DNA of 52,799 bases from Patescibacteria group bacterium. Lineage in GTDB: Bacteria > Patescibacteriota > Minisyncoccia > 2-02-FULL-40-12 > IGHO2-01-FULL-4-A. The stretch covers positions 1-52,799 of the forward strand of contig JBBTSB010000011.1 in the NCBI GenBank assembly GCA_038064915.1, read 5' to 3'. How positions within the stretch are numbered: the stretch's first letter is position 1; each line of letters begins with the position of its first letter. The notes beneath the pieces were generated by a model. That model saw only the letters and a list, made by a program, of their open reading frames with translations, did not search any database and was not told the origin of the DNA. Shown piece after piece: positions 1 to 21,569 of the stretch. The position numbers and the translations under genes are program-made.

Positions 1-57
1 AGTCAGTGCTGATTTTTGATATAGTAGGTTCGAGCAATTTTAAGTATAGGGCACAGA

Positions 58-210
58 ATTGGAAGTCCAGAAAAATTGGGGTCTGAATCCGAAAAACCCC
101 CCGCCGATCCCCCCGCCGGATTGGGGAGGGAATGCAGGAATCCCGCCGTGAATCCGTAGGGTTCCCGAAAATCAAAATTGATGGTCTTGGCGGAAATGAG
201 ACGGTTCGTT
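58..210. repeat. Left arm of a 153-bp inverted repeat (inverted copy of the recombinase 3' region)
   Basis: 58-210 is the reverse complement of 1592-1744; one mismatch seen (67 vs 1735). Confidence 0.95.
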
Positions 211-230
211 GATGAGGCGAAAACAAAATC

Positions 231-1787
231 ATGGAAGCTACAAAATACTTTTTATACATCCGCAAATCTACCGATGAGGAAGGTCGACAAGTTCTTTCTC
301 TCGAAGCTCAACTCCATGAGCTCAAAGAGTTTGCAAAGAAAAATGATCTTGAGGTTATCGAAACGTTTGAGGAAAAGAAAACGGCCAAAGTTCCTGGTCG
401 TGAGGTATTTAATGCCATGCTCAATAAGATTGATGCCGACCTTCCTCATCGGATTGGCATTTTGAGTTGGAATACGGACAGATTGTCCAGAAACTCCGTG
501 GACGCTGGACGTATTATCTATCTACTCGACACAGGAAAACTGGTTGACTTGAAGTTCCCAAGTTTTGCTTTTGAAAACACGCCCAGCGGCAAGTTCTTCT
601 TGTCGATCTCATTAAGTAATGCCAAATACTATGTGGACAATCTGTCCGAAAATGTAAGTCGAGGGAACCGAGCCAAGCTTCGGCGAGGCGGTTGGCCAGG
701 AAGTAAACCTTTTGGTTATGCCTACGATCATCGCTTACGAAATATTGTCCCAGAACCAAGCGAGGCGAAGATCGTCAAGAAAATCTACGAGGAGTTTGCC
801 ACTGGCAAACATGGTCTTGAATCTATCTCTAACCGCCTCGCCGAGCTTACGGGGAAGAAACGAAAATCCTTCTATGGAATTGAGTATCTGCTCACCAACA
901 AAATATATATTGGCATAATGAATTGGAATGGGGAAGTCTATGAAGGAACCTACAAACCTATTATCTCCCAGCAATTGTTTGCGAAGGTACAAGAAACTCT
1001 GAATAGTCGGCGCAAGCCCCGCAAGAGCAAGAAACGACATGATTTTCCATTTGTAGGACTATTTAATTGCTCTTGCGGCTCGATGTTCACCGCACAGTTT
1101 GCAAAAGGCAATGGTGGTATCTATCGCTACTATCGGTGTACGAAAAAGAAAGGGGCTTGCGCCGAAAAATATATCCAGGAATGTGAATTGCAGAAACAAA
1201 TAGTGGAACGAGCGCAAACAATTGCTGTTCCCGAGGTGTGGACAACTGAAATGCTAGAGCACATAGATCAAGAAGAAAAGAAAGAATCTCAATCAGTTGA
1301 TGTCGTGACCCAAGACATCAACAAAAAAATATTCCTTGTGCAAGATAAGTTAGATAAATTATTGGAAGGTTATCTCGATAACTTGATAGATGAGGAAAGC
1401 TATAAGAAGAAAAAAGAGGATCTCGTCAATAAGAAAAACAATCTGAAACATGAGAAAGCGTCTCTCTCAACCACTCGGGCGAGTGGTTGGATCGAACCAA
1501 CTAGGGATTTCGTAAAAACCTTGATACAAGCCAAAAAGATCGCCTCATCGGAATCTCTACAAGAGATTCCCCAATTTTTAGAAAAAATTGGAACGAACCG
1601 TCTCATTTCCGCCAAGACCATCAATTTTGATTTTCGGGAACCCTACGGATTCACGGCGGGATTCCTGCATTCCCTCCCCAATCCGGCGGGGGGATCGGCG
1701 GGGGGTTTTTCGGATTCAGACCCCAATTTTTCTGAACTTCCAATCTGGTGCGCCCGGTTGGAATCGAACCAACGACCATCTCCTTAA
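231..1787 (+). CDS. Large serine recombinase (resolvase, recombinase, zinc ribbon and coiled-coil domains)
   Basis: N-terminal YIRKST catalytic Ser motif, DRLSRN, ENVSRG..KPFGY, CSCG...YYRC...C zinc ribbon, C-terminal coiled coil; abuts a tRNA. Confidence 0.93.
   Translation: MEATKYFLYIRKSTDEEGRQVLSLEAQLHELKEFAKKNDLEVIETFEEKKTAKVPGREVFNAMLNKIDADLPHRIGILSWNTDRLSRNSVDAGRIIYLLDTGKLVDLKFPSFAFENTPSGKFFLSISLSNAKYYVDNLSENVSRGNRAKLRRGGWPGSKPFGYAYDHRLRNIVPEPSEAKIVKKIYEEFATGKHGLESISNRLAELTGKKRKSFYGIEYLLTNKIYIGIMNWNGEVYEGTYKPIISQQLFAKVQETLNSRRKPRKSKKRHDFPFVGLFNCSCGSMFTAQFAKGNGGIYRYYRCTKKKGACAEKYIQECELQKQIVERAQTIAVPEVWTTEMLEHIDQEEKKESQSVDVVTQDINKKIFLVQDKLDKLLEGYLDNLIDEESYKKKKEDLVNKKNNLKHEKASLSTTRASGWIEPTRDFVKTLIQAKKIASSESLQEIPQFLEKIGTNRLISAKTINFDFREPYGFTAGFLHSLPNPAGGSAGGFSDSDPNFSELPIWCARLESNQRPSP
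1592..1744. repeat. Right arm of the 153-bp inverted repeat, inside the recombinase CDS and ending just before the tRNA CCA end
   Basis: Reverse complement of 58-210. Confidence 0.95.
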
Positions 1788-1821
1788 AAGGGAGCTGCTC
1801 TACCAGCTGAGCTACGGGCGC
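1746..1821 (-). tRNA. tRNA-Lys (anticodon TTT), CCA encoded
   Basis: Minus strand reads GCGCCCGTAGCTCAGCTGGTAGAGCAGCTCC-CTTTTAA-GGAGATGGTCGTTGGTTCGATTCCAACCGGGCGCACCA; 76-nt cloverleaf. Confidence 0.95.
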
Positions 1822-2356: not shown

Positions 2357-4903
2357 TTAAAACGGTGCTATCTCGCGCCAACCGGGAATAATTGGCGTTC
2401 CTAAGATAACAGTTTTTTGGCGACTACAACTGAACCCTTCGTTGTCAGTAACTGTCAAGTTCGTTGGGTAGGTTTGTTCAAAGTAAAACGTATTTGTTGG
2501 GTTTTTTAATGACGAAGTTTTGTACTGGCAGGAGTCTTTTCCTTTTACTTTTTTGCAGGTCCATGTCCAGGCATTGGTCTTGCATCCGGCTCCCCCACAA
2601 ACGGTTGAATTGGTAAATTTCACTTCGTCGTCAACATTTGGTTTGCTCGGCGTCCAGGAAAAATTCACTTGGGGATAGGGGTGAGAAGGCGTCGTAAAAG
2701 AAATAGTCGAGGACCACGGCGAGGGCTTATCGGGAATTCCAAATGTATCCCACACCATGACACGGACGTAGTAGGTTGTTGCGTAGGAAAGGTTGGCAGC
2801 AAAGTAGGTTTTGTCGGCGCCAGATAATACGTCCGTATCGATCTCGGGGCTTGAAAAATTGTTATTATTGTCCACCTGCACACGCCGTGCCGACTGTGCA
2901 TCACCCGGATCGGGATCCGTAAATGTCCAAGTAATCGTCGCCCCCGGCCCGCTGGTGCAATAATTTGGCTGTGTGGCGGTAACACTTGATGCCGTAGGAG
3001 CTTTGTCGGCCACAACCGTAACCGGCTTGTGGCTTTCCTTTGCCTGCGCACCCCGCTCAACAATAACTTTTGGATAAAACGTACCCACCGTGCTGTAGGT
3101 GTGTGGCTGGGACAACGGATTCGTCGTAATATTGTCACACTTGTAGCCGTATATATTGCTACTGCAGGTAGTTGGTAACACACCGCACCCACCATCAGCG
3201 ATATCTTTATTCATATCCTGTACGCTCGTCGACATTGTATTGCAGTTCCACCACATACTGTAGTTGATCGTACCGGTTTCTCCTCCCCCAACCGTGGCTT
3301 GCAAAACCGTATCAAGCTTTTCAATGCCGCTCGTAGGATTTGCGGTAAGATTCACGGTGAGTGTCGGTCGTATCTGAAACCATTTATGGGTAAATCCATT
3401 CTCGGTGATGACAGCAGTCTGCGGATTCGGTCCCGTGCTTTCCCACCCAGCTGGATACGAAATGTTCACGGTATATGTTCCCACGGGCAGAAACACTCCA
3501 TAACTCGGGTCGGTATTGCATTTATTTAGCACGGTGGATCCAGTTATCGGTCCGGAATAATTGATAAAAATCCCCCCTTGAGTGGTAAAGTTCGTACATG
3601 GAAGATAACTTGAAGGATCACGAATATATGCCTCACCCACATCAAGAATTTGGTTTCCGTTTGAATCTTTCACAACACGACCCAAAAGACTCCCCACTGC
3701 CGTTGGAGGAAAGTAATGCCACCACAAATTTGCTTCGCGGTCGGCCATGACATTCACTAACGCCGAACTGCTCATCGTAGGCGGATTATTGTGACAATCT
3801 TCAGCATCATAACAAAGCGTATAGCCCACACTCCAACCTGCTGGTACGGTGACGGCAACAGTATGCGTACCTACCGGAGTACCTAGGTAGAAGTAGGGAT
3901 TGACCGTTTTAGGATTGGCACCATCCAGGGTGACAGTTTGTCCGGACGGTGGATTGGGGTTTGGATCGTTATAGGGCATTTTTACTTTGTAGCCCTGAAT
4001 GGTACCGGTGGACGTGGTAGGTGGAGGGCTTCCCACCTTCAGCCAACGGAGCTTGACTTGACCCGGTCCGCCTTCGTTGAAATACTCAAGCTTGATGGTA
4101 TGATTCCCACTTGAAAGAGTTTTCCGATAGGAGTAGTCCGGACAGCATTGCATCACCCACTTATTAATAACCAGCACGTTGTCGATATATAGCCGCACGC
4201 CGTCATCGACATCTTCAACATAGAAATCATAGTCACCGGCAGTAAAATTGAATGTCCCCTGCCAGCGAATGGAAAAGTCCCGGTAGTTCCAATAGAACCA
4301 ATCAAAGTTGGTGTTGATCGCCGTAAATGCATTGGGAGCCGGGTTACTCGCCGTTGGTCCTGATGAGGCGTTGGCAAGAGTGTGGGTCAACTTTTCGTTT
4401 ATTGGTACATCGTAGAAAGCACATCCAACCATCTTGTTGCTCCCCGGCCCGGGCGTCGTACACGACTGCGGCTCGGGAGGAGTTCCTTCGACGATGATTG
4501 GTTTATTTGAAGTTTCCTGGCCAAATAATCCATTTGGGAAAAATGCTTTTTGGTACATCCGCCACTGAAAGTTGTAGGTTCCAGGCGTCGGTGGAGCATT
4601 GATCGTAAACGCAATGGGAAATGATTGGCCGGGCAATACGTCAGATAACAAAACAACATCCGGTGGATCGCTCCAGTTGTTCCCGGTTAAATCCTTTAAA
4701 TAATAAGATCCCCCAGTTTTCCATGTCGTTGTCCCCGTATTTTTCATGGTGATGGAAATACGGACGTGTTGTTCGGGATACATAGTTGATGGAACATTTT
4801 GCCAGCTGACAAATTCGGCACTATCAGCTGCAGAGGCAGAAACAGCATGGAGTAAACCAGAACTGATGAGTATGAAAAACAAAACAATTCGAAGCAGTCG
4901 CAT
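2357..4903 (-). CDS. Large secreted/surface protein: signal peptide, NBR1-like Ig domain, PA14 domain, further Ig/Fn3/PKD-like modules
   Basis: Start placed at MRLLRIVLFF (signal peptide; TATACT lies 6 nt upstream). MKNTGTTTW...APPTPGTYNFQWRM, DFSIRWQG...DDGVRLYID...IKLEYF and LTVTD motifs. Confidence 0.8.
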   Translation of the reverse strand: MRLLRIVLFFILISSGLLHAVSASAADSAEFVSWQNVPSTMYPEQHVRISITMKNTGTTTWKTGGSYYLKDLTGNNWSDPPDVVLLSDVLPGQSFPIAFTINAPPTPGTYNFQWRMYQKAFFPNGLFGQETSNKPIIVEGTPPEPQSCTTPGPGSNKMVGCAFYDVPINEKLTHTLANASSGPTASNPAPNAFTAINTNFDWFYWNYRDFSIRWQGTFNFTAGDYDFYVEDVDDGVRLYIDNVLVINKWVMQCCPDYSYRKTLSSGNHTIKLEYFNEGGPGQVKLRWLKVGSPPPTTSTGTIQGYKVKMPYNDPNPNPPSGQTVTLDGANPKTVNPYFYLGTPVGTHTVAVTVPAGWSVGYTLCYDAEDCHNNPPTMSSSALVNVMADREANLWWHYFPPTAVGSLLGRVVKDSNGNQILDVGEAYIRDPSSYLPCTNFTTQGGIFINYSGPITGSTVLNKCNTDPSYGVFLPVGTYTVNISYPAGWESTGPNPQTAVITENGFTHKWFQIRPTLTVNLTANPTSGIEKLDTVLQATVGGGETGTINYSMWWNCNTMSTSVQDMNKDIADGGCGVLPTTCSSNIYGYKCDNITTNPLSQPHTYSTVGTFYPKVIVERGAQAKESHKPVTVVADKAPTASSVTATQPNYCTSGPGATITWTFTDPDPGDAQSARRVQVDNNNNFSSPEIDTDVLSGADKTYFAANLSYATTYYVRVMVWDTFGIPDKPSPWSSTISFTTPSHPYPQVNFSWTPSKPNVDDEVKFTNSTVCGGAGCKTNAWTWTCKKVKGKDSCQYKTSSLKNPTNTFYFEQTYPTNLTVTDNEGFSCSRQKTVILGTPIIPGWREIAPF

Positions 4904-4933
4904 AGTACAAGTATAGTCGATCGTTTGAAATTG

Positions 4934-4969
4934 AAAAGGTCCCGGCAGGCGCAAGCGCCCACCGGAACC
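4934..4969 (-). terminator. Intrinsic terminator after the lipoprotein gene
   Basis: Minus strand GGTTCCGGTGGGCGC-TT-GCGCCTGCCGGGACC followed by TTTT. Confidence 0.7.
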
Positions 4970-17343: not shown

Positions 17344-19020
17344 GTGCAGGTACAGAACAACCCAACTATTCTTTTGGTTGAGTCCAATTTGTTTATTGGA
17401 GGGATTTTGTCGCAAAAATTACGCAAGCAAAACTACCATGTTCTATCTACCAGCAATGGCAAGGAAGGTCTTCACATTATCGTCGATCAACGGCCTTCCG
17501 TTGTTTTTCTTGATCTTCCCATTGGTCAGATAAAAGTATTTCTCGGCGTTCTTCGATTGATCCACCGAGATCACCAGGCAATATTTCCCCCGATCATCGT
17601 CCTGTCTGAAGTGGAAACGGGAGAAGCGATTACCGAGATATCACAACTTGGTGTACGGGCATACCTGGTCAAGGCATACACCGACATCAACGAAATGATT
17701 GCCAAAATCAAAGAGGTGCTCGCCACCAGCAGTGTTGTAGACGGTTCACCGGAACGCCAGGCCCGCCCGATTCTCGAACCCGTCATCAGTGAACAGAAAC
17801 GCATTAAAGCTGAAATTGAAAAATCGCTCGTTTCCACTGATGAGGAACTTCCCATCGTGCCAATTGTAGACAACCTTGTTTCGTATGCATACTTAGCCCG
17901 GGCGTCGGATATTCACGTAAAGCCCGAAGGGGAACGCGTTGCCATTCGTCTCCGCATCGACGGCCTTCTGCAGGACACGTTTTCGTTCCCCAAAACGATT
18001 CAATCCGAAGTCATTACGCGCATCAAAGTGCTCGCGGGAATGCGCACGGATGAACACCAGTCCGCCCAAGATGGTCGGTTCAAAACAAATATCAAGTCAC
18101 TCCCCCGACAATTTGATATCCGCGTATCGGTCGTACCCACCTACTATGGGGAAAACGCAGTTCTTCGTCTGCTTGTTGAACAGGCGGAAATCAAATCACT
18201 CGAAGATTTGACGTTTTCAGACAATGACCGAAAAAAAATCATGCATGCCATTGAGCGACCAAACGGTATGATTTTGGCAACCGGACCTACGGGATCCGGA
18301 AAGACGACGACGTTGTATACCATCCTCCGCAAACTCAATACTCCTGACGTCTCCATTATCACGATCGAAGATCCTATAGAGTACTCTCTTCTGGGTATCA
18401 ACCAAATTCAGGTCAATGCTGATACCGGTCTCACCTTTGCCGATGGTCTGCGCTCCATTTTACGTCAAGATCCTGATATAATCATGGTAGGGGAAATCCG
18501 AGACAAAGAAACAGCTGCAATAGCGGTCAATGCCGCATTGACGGGACACTTGCTTCTGTCCACACTGCATACCAATGATGCGGCAACTACCCTGCCTCGC
18601 TTGCTGGATATGGGCGTTGAACCATTCCTGATCGCCTCGACCGTAAACATCGCGATCGGACAGAGGTTGGTACGTATGGTGTGCAAGGATTGCAAGGAAA
18701 AAAAGAAGATCACCGACCCAGAATTCAAACGCCTTGCTGAATTTATCCCGGCCAAGGTCCTGGGAAAGCATAGAGATTTTTTTCATGGCAAGGGATGTGC
18801 GCTATGCGGAGATACCGGATATGCCGGACGCATCAGTATTTATGAAATGCTCGAGGTTGATGATGATATTCGACAAGCTATTATGAAACGAGCAAATGGA
18901 AGCGAAATAAAAAAGATTGCCGTTGGAAAGGGCATGACCACACTGCTTGAGGATGGATTTAGGAAAGCTATCGAGGGATTAACGACCATTGAAGAAATCC
19001 TTCGTGTTGTCCAGGAATAA
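17344..19020 (+). CDS. pilB: Receiver domain fused to a PilB/GspE-family pilus assembly ATPase
   Basis: N-terminal REC-like domain (ILLVE...VFLD...YLVK); ASDIH, GPTGSGKTT, IEDPIEY, LRQDPD, GEIRD, TLHTND; CxxC...CxxC. Confidence 0.88.
   Translation: MQVQNNPTILLVESNLFIGGILSQKLRKQNYHVLSTSNGKEGLHIIVDQRPSVVFLDLPIGQIKVFLGVLRLIHRDHQAIFPPIIVLSEVETGEAITEISQLGVRAYLVKAYTDINEMIAKIKEVLATSSVVDGSPERQARPILEPVISEQKRIKAEIEKSLVSTDEELPIVPIVDNLVSYAYLARASDIHVKPEGERVAIRLRIDGLLQDTFSFPKTIQSEVITRIKVLAGMRTDEHQSAQDGRFKTNIKSLPRQFDIRVSVVPTYYGENAVLRLLVEQAEIKSLEDLTFSDNDRKKIMHAIERPNGMILATGPTGSGKTTTLYTILRKLNTPDVSIITIEDPIEYSLLGINQIQVNADTGLTFADGLRSILRQDPDIIMVGEIRDKETAAIAVNAALTGHLLLSTLHTNDAATTLPRLLDMGVEPFLIASTVNIAIGQRLVRMVCKDCKEKKKITDPEFKRLAEFIPAKVLGKHRDFFHGKGCALCGDTGYAGRISIYEMLEVDDDIRQAIMKRANGSEIKKIAVGKGMTTLLEDGFRKAIEGLTTIEEILRVVQE
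18394..18674 (+). repeat. 281-bp exact direct repeat shared with 19877-20157
   Basis: Base-by-base identity at offset 1483; a second 45-bp identical patch at 18277-18321 / 19760-19804. Confidence 0.92.
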
Positions 19021-19021
19021 T

Positions 19022-20503
19022 ATGAACAATACTCCACAAAACGACCCAGCTGACGCACTGCGCACCGTTGCGCAGGAACTGGATGAAATAGCAAAAAAGT
19101 TGTCCACCGAACTCGAGCCCGAACCTGTGGCTGAACCTACGCCTGAACCCGCACCTGAACCCAAGCCTGAACCGGTACCCGACCAGATTCCAGCGCCGCG
19201 AGCGCCTCAAGAACCGCCAACCGCTCACGTGCATGACACGGGCAATGCTAACGCTATCAATCCCCTTATCAGCAGAGCGGAGCGTATTCGTGTGGAAATT
19301 GATGCCGCGCGTAGACTTCCCCTCGAGCAGGTTCCTGTTATCGAGTTAGTTGACAACCTTATTGCATACGCATATTTTCTCAGCGCTTCCGATATCCATT
19401 TTGACCCCGACGAAACGAAGCTCATCGTGCGTATTCGTGTGGATGGAATCCAACATGATGTATTCGAGCTCCCGAAGAATCTACAACCGACGATCATCAG
19501 TCGCATCAAGGTACTCTCGAGTATGCGTACCGACGAACATCAATCAGCACAAGATGGCCGCTTTAAGACAAGCATCCCTGATATGCCCCAGCAATTCGAT
19601 ATCCGCGTATCAGTTGTACCCACCTATTACGGTGAAGATGCTGTGGCCCGCTTACTCGTGGAGCATACGCCCATTACCTCGCTGGATGATTTAAATTTTT
19701 CCGATTCTGACAAGGCAAAAGTCGAGCGCGCAATTCAAAAACCCAACGGTATGATCCTAGCAACCGGACCTACGGGATCCGGAAAGACGACGACGTTGTA
19801 TACCGTTTTACTTACCCTCAAAACTCCGGATGTTTCAATTATTACCATCGAGGATCCCGTTGAGTACTCAATCCATGGTATCAACCAAATTCAGGTCAAT
19901 GCTGATACCGGTCTCACCTTTGCCGATGGTCTGCGCTCCATTTTACGTCAAGATCCTGATATAATCATGGTAGGGGAAATCCGAGACAAAGAAACAGCTG
20001 CAATAGCGGTCAATGCCGCATTGACGGGACACTTGCTTCTGTCCACACTGCATACCAATGATGCGGCAACTACCCTGCCTCGCTTGCTGGATATGGGCGT
20101 TGAACCATTCCTGATCGCCTCGACCGTAAACATCGCGATCGGACAGAGGTTGGTACGCAAACTTTGCCAAACATGCAAAGTTCCCCGTTCGATCACGGAA
20201 GCCGAATTTGCAAGACTTTCGACGGTTCTGCCCGATCACCTTGTTGCCAAAGACTCACAGTTTTTTGCCAGCAAGGGTTGCGCAGAGTGCGGCAATACAG
20301 GGTTTGCAAGCCGTGTTGCCATTCATGAGGTACTTGAAATGAACGACGAAATTCGAGACGCAGTAATGAAACGCATCAATGCATCCGAAATCAGAAAACT
20401 TGCTATGAGCAAGGGTATGACCACGATGCTTGAAGATGGTTTTCAAAAAGTCCTGCTAGGTCTCACGACCATAGAGGAAGTATTGCGTGTGGTACAAGAA
20501 TAG
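19022..20503 (+). CDS. pilB: Second PilB/GspE-family ATPase with Pro/Glu-rich N-terminal linker
   Basis: Same Walker A/B, Asp and His boxes and tetra-Cys motif; EPEPVAEPTPEPAPEP linker. Confidence 0.88.
   Translation: MNNTPQNDPADALRTVAQELDEIAKKLSTELEPEPVAEPTPEPAPEPKPEPVPDQIPAPRAPQEPPTAHVHDTGNANAINPLISRAERIRVEIDAARRLPLEQVPVIELVDNLIAYAYFLSASDIHFDPDETKLIVRIRVDGIQHDVFELPKNLQPTIISRIKVLSSMRTDEHQSAQDGRFKTSIPDMPQQFDIRVSVVPTYYGEDAVARLLVEHTPITSLDDLNFSDSDKAKVERAIQKPNGMILATGPTGSGKTTTLYTVLLTLKTPDVSIITIEDPVEYSIHGINQIQVNADTGLTFADGLRSILRQDPDIIMVGEIRDKETAAIAVNAALTGHLLLSTLHTNDAATTLPRLLDMGVEPFLIASTVNIAIGQRLVRKLCQTCKVPRSITEAEFARLSTVLPDHLVAKDSQFFASKGCAECGNTGFASRVAIHEVLEMNDEIRDAVMKRINASEIRKLAMSKGMTTMLEDGFQKVLLGLTTIEEVLRVVQE
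19877..20157 (+). repeat. Second copy of the 281-bp exact repeat
   Basis: Identical to 18394-18674. Confidence 0.92.
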
Positions 20504-20504
20504 T

Positions 20505-21569
20505 ATGGCAAATCCCTTCTACTACATTTCAATGAAGGAAAAAATGTTTTTCGCCAGGCATCTGGCGATCATGTCGCGTTCGGGAATGCAGATTTTGGAT
20601 ATCCTTCGTACTCTGCAAAAACAAGCGAAGTCAAAAACATTCAAAAAAATCATTGCTGGTCTCATCGACGATGTTGGAAATGGACAGTTCCTTGCCGATG
20701 GTCTAGCAAAACATCAAAAATTATTCGGTGAGTTTTTTATCAATATCGTACGTGTCGGTGAAATCAGCGGATCGCTCGCGGAAAACCTTGAATACCTCGC
20801 AGACTCTCTGAAAAAGAAGCGTGAACTGGAGGCCAAGGTCAAAGGTGCGATGATGTATCCTGTCATTATTCTGTTCGCTACGTTCGGAATTACTGGAGCG
20901 CTTATGTTTTTTATATTTCCCAAGATTTTACCGATCTTCAGATCGCTGAAGATTGAACTTCCGCTGATAACCAAGATTTTTATTACCGTTTCTACGTTCT
21001 TGATTGATAACGGACCCCTGGTGTTCCTGGGAGTCGTGATCTCGTGTATCGCCATGTGGTTTCTCCTCCGCATTCCTTCCATCCGCTATATCTGGCATCG
21101 TTTTATGCTTATGCTTCCCGTTGCCGGTACGATGGTGCAGAATTTTAATGTCATCGCATTCGTGCGTGCCCTGTCGCTTCTTATGAAAAGCGGAGTAAAA
21201 ATCGTCCAATCACTCGAGATTACGGCAAACTCATCAAACAATCTTGTCTATCGAAAAGTCCTCAAGGAAGTTTCCGTCGCGGTGGGGCAGGGTGATCCCA
21301 TTTCCAAGCATCTTGCATTACATCCACGCCTGTTTCCCGTGGTATTTTCCCAAATGATTGCCGTGGGAGAAGATACTGGCCGACTTACCGATACGGGCCT
21401 TTACTTGGCTGATTACTTTGAAGGAGAGCTGGATAACTCAACAAAAACGCTCTCCAGTGTTCTTGAACCGTTACTGTTGGTTATTATGGGATTTGTCGTT
21501 TGCTTCATCGCGCTTGCCATTATCCTTCCTATCTATGAAGTTTCACAACATATCGGTCCTCAAAAATGA
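20505..21569 (+). CDS. pilC: Type IV pilus/T2SS inner-membrane platform protein (PilC/GspF)
   Basis: FARHLAIM..SG, GEISGSL, AMMYP, GEDTGRL and LEPLL motifs. Confidence 0.9.
   Translation: MANPFYYISMKEKMFFARHLAIMSRSGMQILDILRTLQKQAKSKTFKKIIAGLIDDVGNGQFLADGLAKHQKLFGEFFINIVRVGEISGSLAENLEYLADSLKKKRELEAKVKGAMMYPVIILFATFGITGALMFFIFPKILPIFRSLKIELPLITKIFITVSTFLIDNGPLVFLGVVISCIAMWFLLRIPSIRYIWHRFMLMLPVAGTMVQNFNVIAFVRALSLLMKSGVKIVQSLEITANSSNNLVYRKVLKEVSVAVGQGDPISKHLALHPRLFPVVFSQMIAVGEDTGRLTDTGLYLADYFEGELDNSTKTLSSVLEPLLLVIMGFVVCFIALAIILPIYEVSQHIGPQK

Follow-up and report, generated by a model that had tools for sequence, protein, structure and literature searches.

For the insertion of large DNA into genomes, large serine recombinases (LSRs) serve as the principal tools; the known serine integrases act at short (~40–50 bp) attP/attB sites and mostly target protein genes. 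Here we describe LSR1, an LSR gene that is enclosed between two long mirror-image arms at the 3′ end of a tRNA gene, in a 52,799-nucleotide stretch of DNA from a Patescibacteria group bacterium (GenBank assembly GCA_038064915.1, contig JBBTSB010000011.1; hereafter, the window). The window is the entire contig C11 of a genome, G000, that comprises 750,809 bases in 12 contigs and is 95% complete. The LSR1 unit is best explained as the recombinase module of a small integrative element that targets tRNA ends and combines mirrored arms with a gene-wide fold, a reading to which we assign a probability of about 55%.

Several described systems share some of these features. The LSRs of phages and genomic islands, such as the A118/LI integrase, SprA/YokA of SPbeta, phiC31 and Bxb1, resemble LSR1 in the architecture of resolvase, recombinase and zinc-ribbon domains and in the location of the gene next to the element-chromosome junction. 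Unlike these, the LSR1 family sits at the 3′ end of many tRNAs and possesses a mirrored 100–178-bp attachment arm upstream of the gene, along with conserved perfect helices in the coding sequence. The locus also resembles the Hin/Gin/Cin invertases in that a serine recombinase gene is accompanied by inverted repeats. The Hin/Gin/Cin recombinases are small (~190 aa for Hin and Gin, with a C-terminal helix-turn-helix), their sites are short (~26 bp) and accompanied by an enhancer, and the two orientations occur side by side (see PMC3798978). Unlike in these DNA invertase switches, LSR1 is a 518-aa LSR, the arms are 153 bp long, the invertible segment is the gene itself, and the orientation is fixed across 43 genomes. 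In integrons, the attC recombination sites act as folded single-stranded hairpins with little sequence conservation (PMC6393395, PMC2727003). Like the LSR1 elements, integrons consist of repeat-framed single-gene modules stacked beside a recombinase gene, but the recombinase is the tyrosine enzyme IntI, and the attC arms lie next to each other and are imperfect, containing extrahelical bases, whereas the LSR1 arms are near-perfect and flank the recombinase gene at a distance of 1.4 kb from each other; that the LSR1 arms, too, would act as single strands is only our inference.

Mobile DNA dependent on serine recombinases also includes the elements with serine transposases, namely, the IS607 family, Tn4451 with TnpX and Tn5397 with TndX. 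TnpX and TndX alone move DNA, with no separate excisionase, and their elements are transposons of several kilobases that neither have long mirrored arms nor target tRNA ends. Terminal inverted repeats are absent from the IS607-family elements, whose enzyme contains an N-terminal DNA-binding domain (PMC6188088). A full-text literature search, at the level of listings and abstracts, found no published description of the LSR1 element family, the nearest class being the tycheposons. These tRNA islands are, like the LSR1 element, small cargo-carrying elements at tRNA genes in streamlined genomes; unlike it, they are cyanobacterial, mostly encode tyrosine integrases and often carry replication genes. 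The searched text of the tycheposon preprint describes no mirrored arms or self-complementary integrase gene, and mentions “inverted repeat” in the reference list only.

A repeat search of the window identifies inverted arms at 51–210 and 1592–1751 (160 nt, 98% complementary, 1381-nt spacer). By blastn, 58–210 aligns with 1744–1592 over 153 nt at 99.35% identity, that is, 152 of the 153 bases are complementary, which bears out the repeat reported in the original prediction; the sole difference is at position 66 versus 1736. This repeat is beyond chance because perfect inverted repeats that reach 13 nt within 2 kb number only 79 in the whole genome. The LSR1 gene (231..1787, forward strand) encodes 518 aa and has the C-terminus FSELPIWCARLESNQRPSP; its last 42 bases are antisense to the gene for tRNA-Lys(UUU), the only tRNA that ARAGORN finds in the window. 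This tRNA (1746–1821, reverse strand) is intact and convergent with the recombinase gene, and its 3′ end forms the junction with the 3′ arm (1592..1751, forward strand), which extends 6 bases into it and encodes the last conserved recombinase residues (TNRLISAKTINFDFREPYGF...) followed by an unconserved tail. The 5′ arm (58..210, forward strand) is an inverted copy of the last ~150 bases of the recombinase gene; on the minus strand, in the recombinase frame, its translation ends with FSGLPILCPILKIARTYYIKNQH and a stop codon, and both protein tails read as they had been quoted earlier. Between the 5′ arm and the start codon lies a leader of 20 nt (211..230, forward strand), of which 211–220 pairs with 1540–1549, lengthening the outer stem beyond a 42-nt bulge, with 10 of 10 pairs present in the minimum free energy (MFE) folds computed with both RNA and DNA parameters. 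The outer flank of the 5′ arm (1..57, forward strand) contains, at 27–33, the T-loop-like GGTTCGA that had been noticed previously, which turns out to be a motif found family-wide ahead of the 5′ arm, and ends with GGGCACA, resembling the tRNA-Lys end GGGCGCACCA. A simple scan finds one terminator-like hairpin, at 1550–1570. A simple promoter scan of 1–230 detects no LSR1 promoter; the only promoter-like site found, TTGCCA-18-TAAAAT at 1890–1861 on the reverse strand, lies upstream of tRNA-Lys.

The protein itself matches Resolvase (PF00239, 4e-19, residues 7–155), Recombinase (PF07508, 1.8e-14, residues 176–259) and Zn_ribbon_recom (PF13408, 3.7e-06, residues 273–327) in Pfam. Across 12 family members, R11, K12 and S13 are nearly invariant, and C280, C282, C303 and C310 are invariant. 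In LSRs, a coiled-coil motif inserted in the zinc-ribbon domain controls synapsis; residues ~330–450 of LSR1 are rich in K, E and L. A profile of the 12 family members matches the SPbeta YokA/SprA chains (9dxd) with 2.3e-19, the match to YokA extending through residue 459, and the A118 integrase (4kis) with 7.5e-15. Judging by these matches, LSR1 is a large serine recombinase with the full LSR domain set, matching the solved LSRs. No directionality factor gene is visible in the 1.7-kb recombinase module.

Relatives of this module are widespread. The recombinase has matches at E ≤ 1e-20 in 36 of 61 genomes (the relatives of G000 and G000 itself), often several per genome and often at contig ends. 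Among the 29 loci examined from the relatives, 17 contain the bracketing repeat, with arms of 28–144 nt that are mostly 97–100% identical, several being cut by contig ends; the remaining 12 are truncated loci or encode the most distant proteins. A scan of one genome per species yielded at least 603 pattern matches, of which at least 582 encode relatives of LSR1, in many lineages of Patescibacteria. We examined the best 80 of these (at least 582) relatives, 59 of which have at least 150 nt upstream and at least 100 nt downstream; a bracketing repeat is present in 54 of the 59, with arms of at least 40 nt in 53. These arms span 36–178 nt at 82.7–100% identity (17 loci at 100%) and are kept at a median identity of ~99% across lineages in which the recombinases themselves are only ~40% identical. 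One of the loci (L051) comes from a closed genome, CP174360.1, where the arms are 93 nt long and 98.9% identical. A viral origin finds little support, as a single relative of the recombinase was found in a viral contig collection. The LSR module is one unit of a very common and apparently undescribed mobile element of the ultra-small Patescibacteria.

The relationship of the module to tRNA genes is equally consistent. There are 67 loci with arms, 58 of which have at least 80 nt beyond the 3′ arm and 56 of which extend far enough beyond the 5′ arm. A convergent tRNA called by ARAGORN has its 3′ end within 15 nt of the end of the 3′ arm in 43 of the 58 loci, and a tRNA is found at the 5′ arm in none of the 56; the gene thus has a fixed orientation with respect to the tRNA. 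The targets include 12 types of tRNA (Gln, 9; Ala, 6; Pro, 6; Asn, 4; Leu, 3; Glu, 3; Arg, 3; Ser, 3; Lys, 2; Trp, 2; Val, 1; Phe, 1), and the occurrence of homologous units at so many types suggests that the element is mobile. In the junction table, arm identity continues 4–8 nt into the tRNA end, so that the two junctions have in common the arm and only these 4–8 nt, the outer halves being the tRNA 3′ end in one case and its GTTCG...CA mimic in the other. Of 71 loci, 56 have the GTTCG motif at most 60 nt upstream of the 5′ arm, compared to a chance expectation of ~0.05 per locus, and in 49 of these 56 it is 21–24 nt from the arm; on the other side, 65 loci have the T-loop GTTC(G/A) of the tRNA, which in 53 of them is 16–18 nt from the arm.

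Apart from the outer stem, the coding sequence of LSR1 contains a network of helices. These are helix 1 (271–286/437–452, 16 perfect pairs, 16 of 16 in both MFE folds), helix 2 (475–489/634–648, 15 perfect pairs), helix 3 (680–693/831–844, 14 perfect pairs, part of a cluster common to 7 of the 19 members of the LSR1 clade), helix 4 (969–983/1213–1227, 15 pairs, the most widely shared helix of the family) and, enclosed by helix 4, helix 5 (1007–1020/1152–1165, 14 pairs). The MFE folds of the window segment 1–1830, with RNA and with DNA parameters, include all seven helices. The four 2-kb windows of the genome that are densest in perfect inverted repeats of at least 13 nt map to LSR1 and its paralog LSR2, described below, with 6–8 repeats each compared to ~0.1 per kb in the genome as a whole. 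Using a threshold of 12 nt, each of the 19 clade genes contains 2–10 perfect repeats, whereas six distant LSRs without arms contain 0, 0, 0, 0, 1 and 0; at least two such repeats are present in 75 of the 80 further genes examined (median, 5.5). The folding energy of LSR1 is −480.5, compared to −407.3 ± 9.2 for synonymous-codon shuffles (z −7.9; antisense, z −7.6; n = 20), and for LSR2, the z-score against synonymous shuffles is −7.8 (n = 14); the controls, aspS from the same genome and an armless LSR, give z +0.8 and 0.0, respectively.

The helices are conserved in position, nested, and covary even when this entails changes in the protein. At the helix-4 place (~nt 734–749/984–999), a perfect complement of at least 11 nt is found in 17 of the 19 clade genes, with 9 and 8 nt in the other two, compared to 5–7 nt in all six outgroup recombinases. 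Six sequence versions occupy this place, and the two encoded peptides change together: QQLFA is paired with AQTIAV, SKKLFD with LQKVSL, FEAV with TRLQ, and MLAK with ISQA. Within genes, helices cross in only 6 of 320 pairs, compared to 23% when the spans are placed randomly.

In one subfamily (loci L015, L019, L021 and L027), the pairing reaches beyond the gene: perfect 20–34-nt “staple” pairings join the recombinase gene to the sequence past an oppositely oriented cargo gene, where a 28–34-nt complement of nt 87–120 is located. In these loci (L019 191–1500 and the other three), three perfect complements that abut one another make up a 70-nt stretch upstream of the recombinase; these target the ribosome-binding region, gene nt 138–157 and gene nt 1347–1374; the resulting helices abut like a three-way junction and are pseudoknotted in order. 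In G000, there is no perfect match of at least 10 nt between the recombinase modules and the outer arms (C4:1–416, C6:67364–67720) of the sister modules considered next.

The genome encompasses a second complete element, at C6:65684–69584 (L004 2685–6585), which consists, in this order, of tRNA-Pro, LSR2 with mirrored arms and a repeat-framed second module. LSR2 (C6:65690–67210, reverse strand) is a paralog of LSR1 with 46% identity; its arms (146 nt, 96%) are 1393 nt apart within the contig, and the 3′ arm overlaps the end of tRNA-Pro. The second module is framed by the arms of an inverted repeat, Fseg, which are at least 306 nt long, and the 1860 nt between them contain three open reading frames (ORFs) of 115, 152 and 240 aa. 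The 152-aa product is SnoaL-like (PF12680, 1.1e-08), whereas no family above the cut-off is found for the 115- and 240-aa ORFs. For LSR1, the outer flank 1..57 represents the last bases of a longer repeat arm, Aseg (C4:1–416), which would bracket a cargo module located off the contig; the interior enclosed by Aseg is absent from the assembly. The outer cargo-module arms of the two elements, C4:1–416 (L001) and C6:67364–67669, are homologous, GC-rich and strongly self-folding, and have common blocks, such as GGGATCAATCCATAAT; the DNA fold of C4:1–416 has an energy of −98.7 kcal/mol (z −9.8 against 100 shuffles). A search of C4:1–6000, including the structured outer arm, against Rfam 15 produced no match at E up to 1, and at the gathering score, only tRNAs were detected in five flank loci.

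The ends of the contigs fit this organization. All contig ends of G000 carry 55-base overlaps, typical of a graph assembler with k = 55, and the contigs break at these loci because the repeat arms are longer than k. Window positions 1–55 are identical to C4:362–416, beyond which C4 runs into an ORF and C11 into the arm; the last 55 bases of C4 are the same as C6:67364–67418, just outside the upstream arm of LSR2, and C6 ends with a 55-base reverse complement of C6:67615–67669. These overlaps would make sense if a second module, framed by a longer inverted repeat, comes after each recombinase module, and contig C11 starts where it does because of this second, outer repeat beyond the 5′ arm. The order implied by the assembly graph, as opposed to reads, would be C6, element 2, reverse C4, element 1, C11.

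Further contig ends of G000 show related or similar arrangements. The end of C12 (37503–37577, tRNA-Leu(GAG)) and the start of C8 (1–75, tRNA-Tyr) both enter one ~47-nt arm-like sequence, 80–87% like the outer part of the LSR1 arm, and both contigs stop at the same base; possibly, this is a third module between two convergent tRNAs, with its interior unassembled. At the start of C2 (15–221), a 3′ fragment of a recombinase gene, 38% identical to LSR1 residues 418–487, is followed by a convergent tRNA-Ser(CGA) and then by three more tRNAs; this arrangement is probably a fourth module, truncated in the assembly. The assembly is also interrupted at an inverted repeat formed by C3:1–960 and C9:91707–92685, a ~1-kb inverted pair with 73% identity at contig ends that have the terminal 55 bases in common; the sequence is unrelated to the recombinase.

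On the reading that we favor, the LSR of the element would position it precisely at 3′ ends of tRNA genes. The module comprises the recombinase gene between two mirror-image copies of the attachment arm, with the 3′ arm fused to the tRNA end and the 5′ arm fused to a tRNA-end-like site (GTTCG...CA) that opens the cargo module. A single strand of the module could close through the 153-bp outer stem, such that the arms form the outermost stem of the gene-wide fold, with nested, strictly Watson–Crick helices of 12–20 bp subdividing the coding sequence. The unit would move by the action of the recombinase at the tRNA end, and the fold might act in single-stranded DNA, for example, when taken up or displaced as one strand; the stem would then restore an attachment site in duplex form, and the stems would be kept free of mismatches by intrastrand repair. 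The most specific form of this idea is that the module, once single-stranded through uptake by competence or through displacement, is a self-folding single-stranded DNA object in which the arms zip to a 100–180-bp duplex attachment site, the helices compact and protect the 1.4-kb gene loop, intrastrand repair keeps the stems Watson–Crick, and the serine recombinase acts on, or travels with, the folded strand; we put this forward tentatively and consider it unlikely to hold as a whole.

The alternative that fares best is that the element is the same but the fold acts in RNA, a doubtful but serious possibility. An mRNA that includes both arms would close into a 150-bp panhandle burying the ribosome-binding region, which would silence read-through transcripts or limit the recombinase to a short burst per transcript, whereas the internal helices would stabilize the message or throttle it further. 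In several relatives, indeed, the 5′ arm reaches −5 to −20 or covers the start codon (LSR2, −12; L013, −42 to +25), and in some, a separate helix lies over −33..−12; many helices are close to the start (5–19/103–117 in LSR2; 10–22/333–345 in L017, L018 and L028), and the MFE fold with RNA parameters includes all the helices. The sequences of the helices themselves point the other way. In 99 genes, there are 549 helices of 12–20 nt (median, 13), for which the first non-pair was recorded at 1076 ends; only 25 ends resume past a single mismatch, and the stems thus stand as isolated, perfect blocks. The first non-pair is G-T in 162 of the 1076 cases (15.1%, expected 14.7%) and A-C in 188 (17.5%, expected 17.8%), and because both counts match the expectation from composition, there is no wobble signature on either strand. 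Interior mismatches in the 19-gene set are similarly even (G-T, 6; A-C, 6; other, 7); a fixed-column wobble count on the codon alignment is too noisy because the helices slip register. Against an RNA fold there are also the arms, 99–100% identical over 100–178 nt, far above what RNA pairing needs, the staple pairings that cross an oppositely oriented gene, and the equal z-scores of the sense and antisense strands. A single-stranded DNA stage, in which repair or templated correction would act within the stems, is favored because the G-U signature is missing, the arms are over-perfect and some pairings span the opposite gene; hence, the structure seems to be a single-strand fold in which DNA is likelier than RNA.

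The original prediction, instead, was a self-inverting switch: the DNA between the arms would be inverted by the recombinase or by homologous recombination, and this would alter both the C-terminal tail and the context of the promoter. Inverted arms that are this long and nearly identical are indeed a substrate for inversion, the ORF is intact in either orientation, and many assemblies break at these loci; nevertheless, such a switch is very unlikely. No flipped copy was found: all 43 loci in which a tRNA abuts an arm have the same orientation. In the alignment of the 19 clade proteins, conservation extends ~25 residues into the arm, through the block (I/L)G(S/T)N...L..R.L.F....PY.L.AE, with the inner boundary of the arm at a constant position in the protein, just past the GSN/GTN motif. 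Beyond this block, the sequence is an unconserved read-through into the local tRNA, with a recurrent DSN/ESN that comes from the antisense T-loop; accordingly, the alternative C-terminus is not a conserved feature, and the comparison of homologous C-termini suggested with the switch reveals tails of both kinds as read-through. Furthermore, no second allele at 66/1736 is seen in 31-mer contigs, although such contigs drop rare variants; the contig breaks are accounted for by arms longer than k = 55; and the enzyme is of the large serine integrase type rather than a Hin/Gin-type invertase.

It is also highly improbable that the arms are a functionless duplication, that is, a remnant of an old integration in or beside the recombinase gene, with the arms kept similar via occasional gene conversion. 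Some loci do have decayed arms (82–90% identity), and gene conversion between repeats of 100–150 bp is plausible on general grounds. The layout, however, is retained in 54 of 59 loci across lineages with ~40%-identical proteins, the inner arm boundary is constant in the protein, and the internal helices of 12–20 bp, too short for recombination to homogenize, are nonetheless conserved in place, nested and covarying. A related suggestion made at the outset, a relic of integration at an att site within the integrase gene, survives in part: an att site within the integrase gene comes close to what the comparisons indicate, whereas a relic does not agree with a median arm identity of ~99%.

An assembly artifact at the contig edge, such as a fold-back chimera, can practically be dismissed even though the repeat is close (within 210 bases) to the contig start and another contig has bases 1–55 in common with C11, given the arms 1381 nt apart with unique flanks and a one-base difference, the ordinary nature of 55-base graph joins at a longer repeat, and the recurrence of the same architecture within C6 and in dozens of independent assemblies, including the closed genome CP174360.1. 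The junction 210/211, for which a chimeric contig end had been envisaged, is spanned by Logan contigs from two studies: 181–496 or 183–350 is covered without difference in 3 runs of one study, and 194–272 in 1 run of the other. These pieces are 31-mer contigs with 17–30 bases on the arm side, as expected at the edge of a repeat, and cannot span the arms.

Several observations weigh against the tRNA-end-targeting element with a functional fold. Neither an excised circle nor an empty site nor a second orientation has been seen, the available reads being 31-mer contigs shorter than the arms. The protein encoded at C4:416–1132 and the adenosyltransferase (1832–2338) have no match in the relatives G001, G002, G004 and G005, and for the former, 362 pattern matches in a metagenome collection included 0 confirmed ones. 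The cargo module of the LSR1 copy is absent from the assembly, and the two-copy reading of its arm comes from contig-end overlaps only. No tRNA is called at the 3′ arm in 15 of 58 loci, several of which have tRNA-like 3′ ends. Some helices of the staple subfamily are mutually exclusive or pseudoknotted; the missing G-U signature is indirect evidence, and equal z-scores for the two strands do not separate DNA from RNA. Finally, we know of no serine recombinase that uses single-stranded or folded substrates.

Elsewhere in the window, there is an 865-aa ORF (2357–4954, reverse strand), the product of which, probably a surface protein, has a signal-like N-terminus and beta-rich segments that recur along the sequence, and a ~1-kb direct repeat (18011–19024 and 19494–20507, 75.6% identity) that presumably corresponds to tandem paralogous genes.

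The LSR1 family represents a very large natural set (at least 582 relatives, at one genome per species) of compact recombinase modules that apparently need no helper gene within the module and select a target as simple and universal as the 3′ end of many tRNAs. It presents a rare case in which self-complementarity constrains a whole coding gene enough to dictate amino acid changes at paired sites, and the gene-wide fold provides a testable handle on a single-stranded DNA or RNA stage in a serine-recombinase element. In practice, these units break short-read assemblies of genomes of the candidate phyla radiation (CPR) at tRNA genes. The means of horizontal transfer in Patescibacteria are poorly known, and this family may be a main vehicle of gene exchange in these bacteria. 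If the substrate is indeed folded single-stranded DNA, the element would parallel the attC biology of integrons with a serine recombinase in place of the tyrosine enzyme, and would offer DNA-scavenging CPR bacteria a suitable route of gene transfer.

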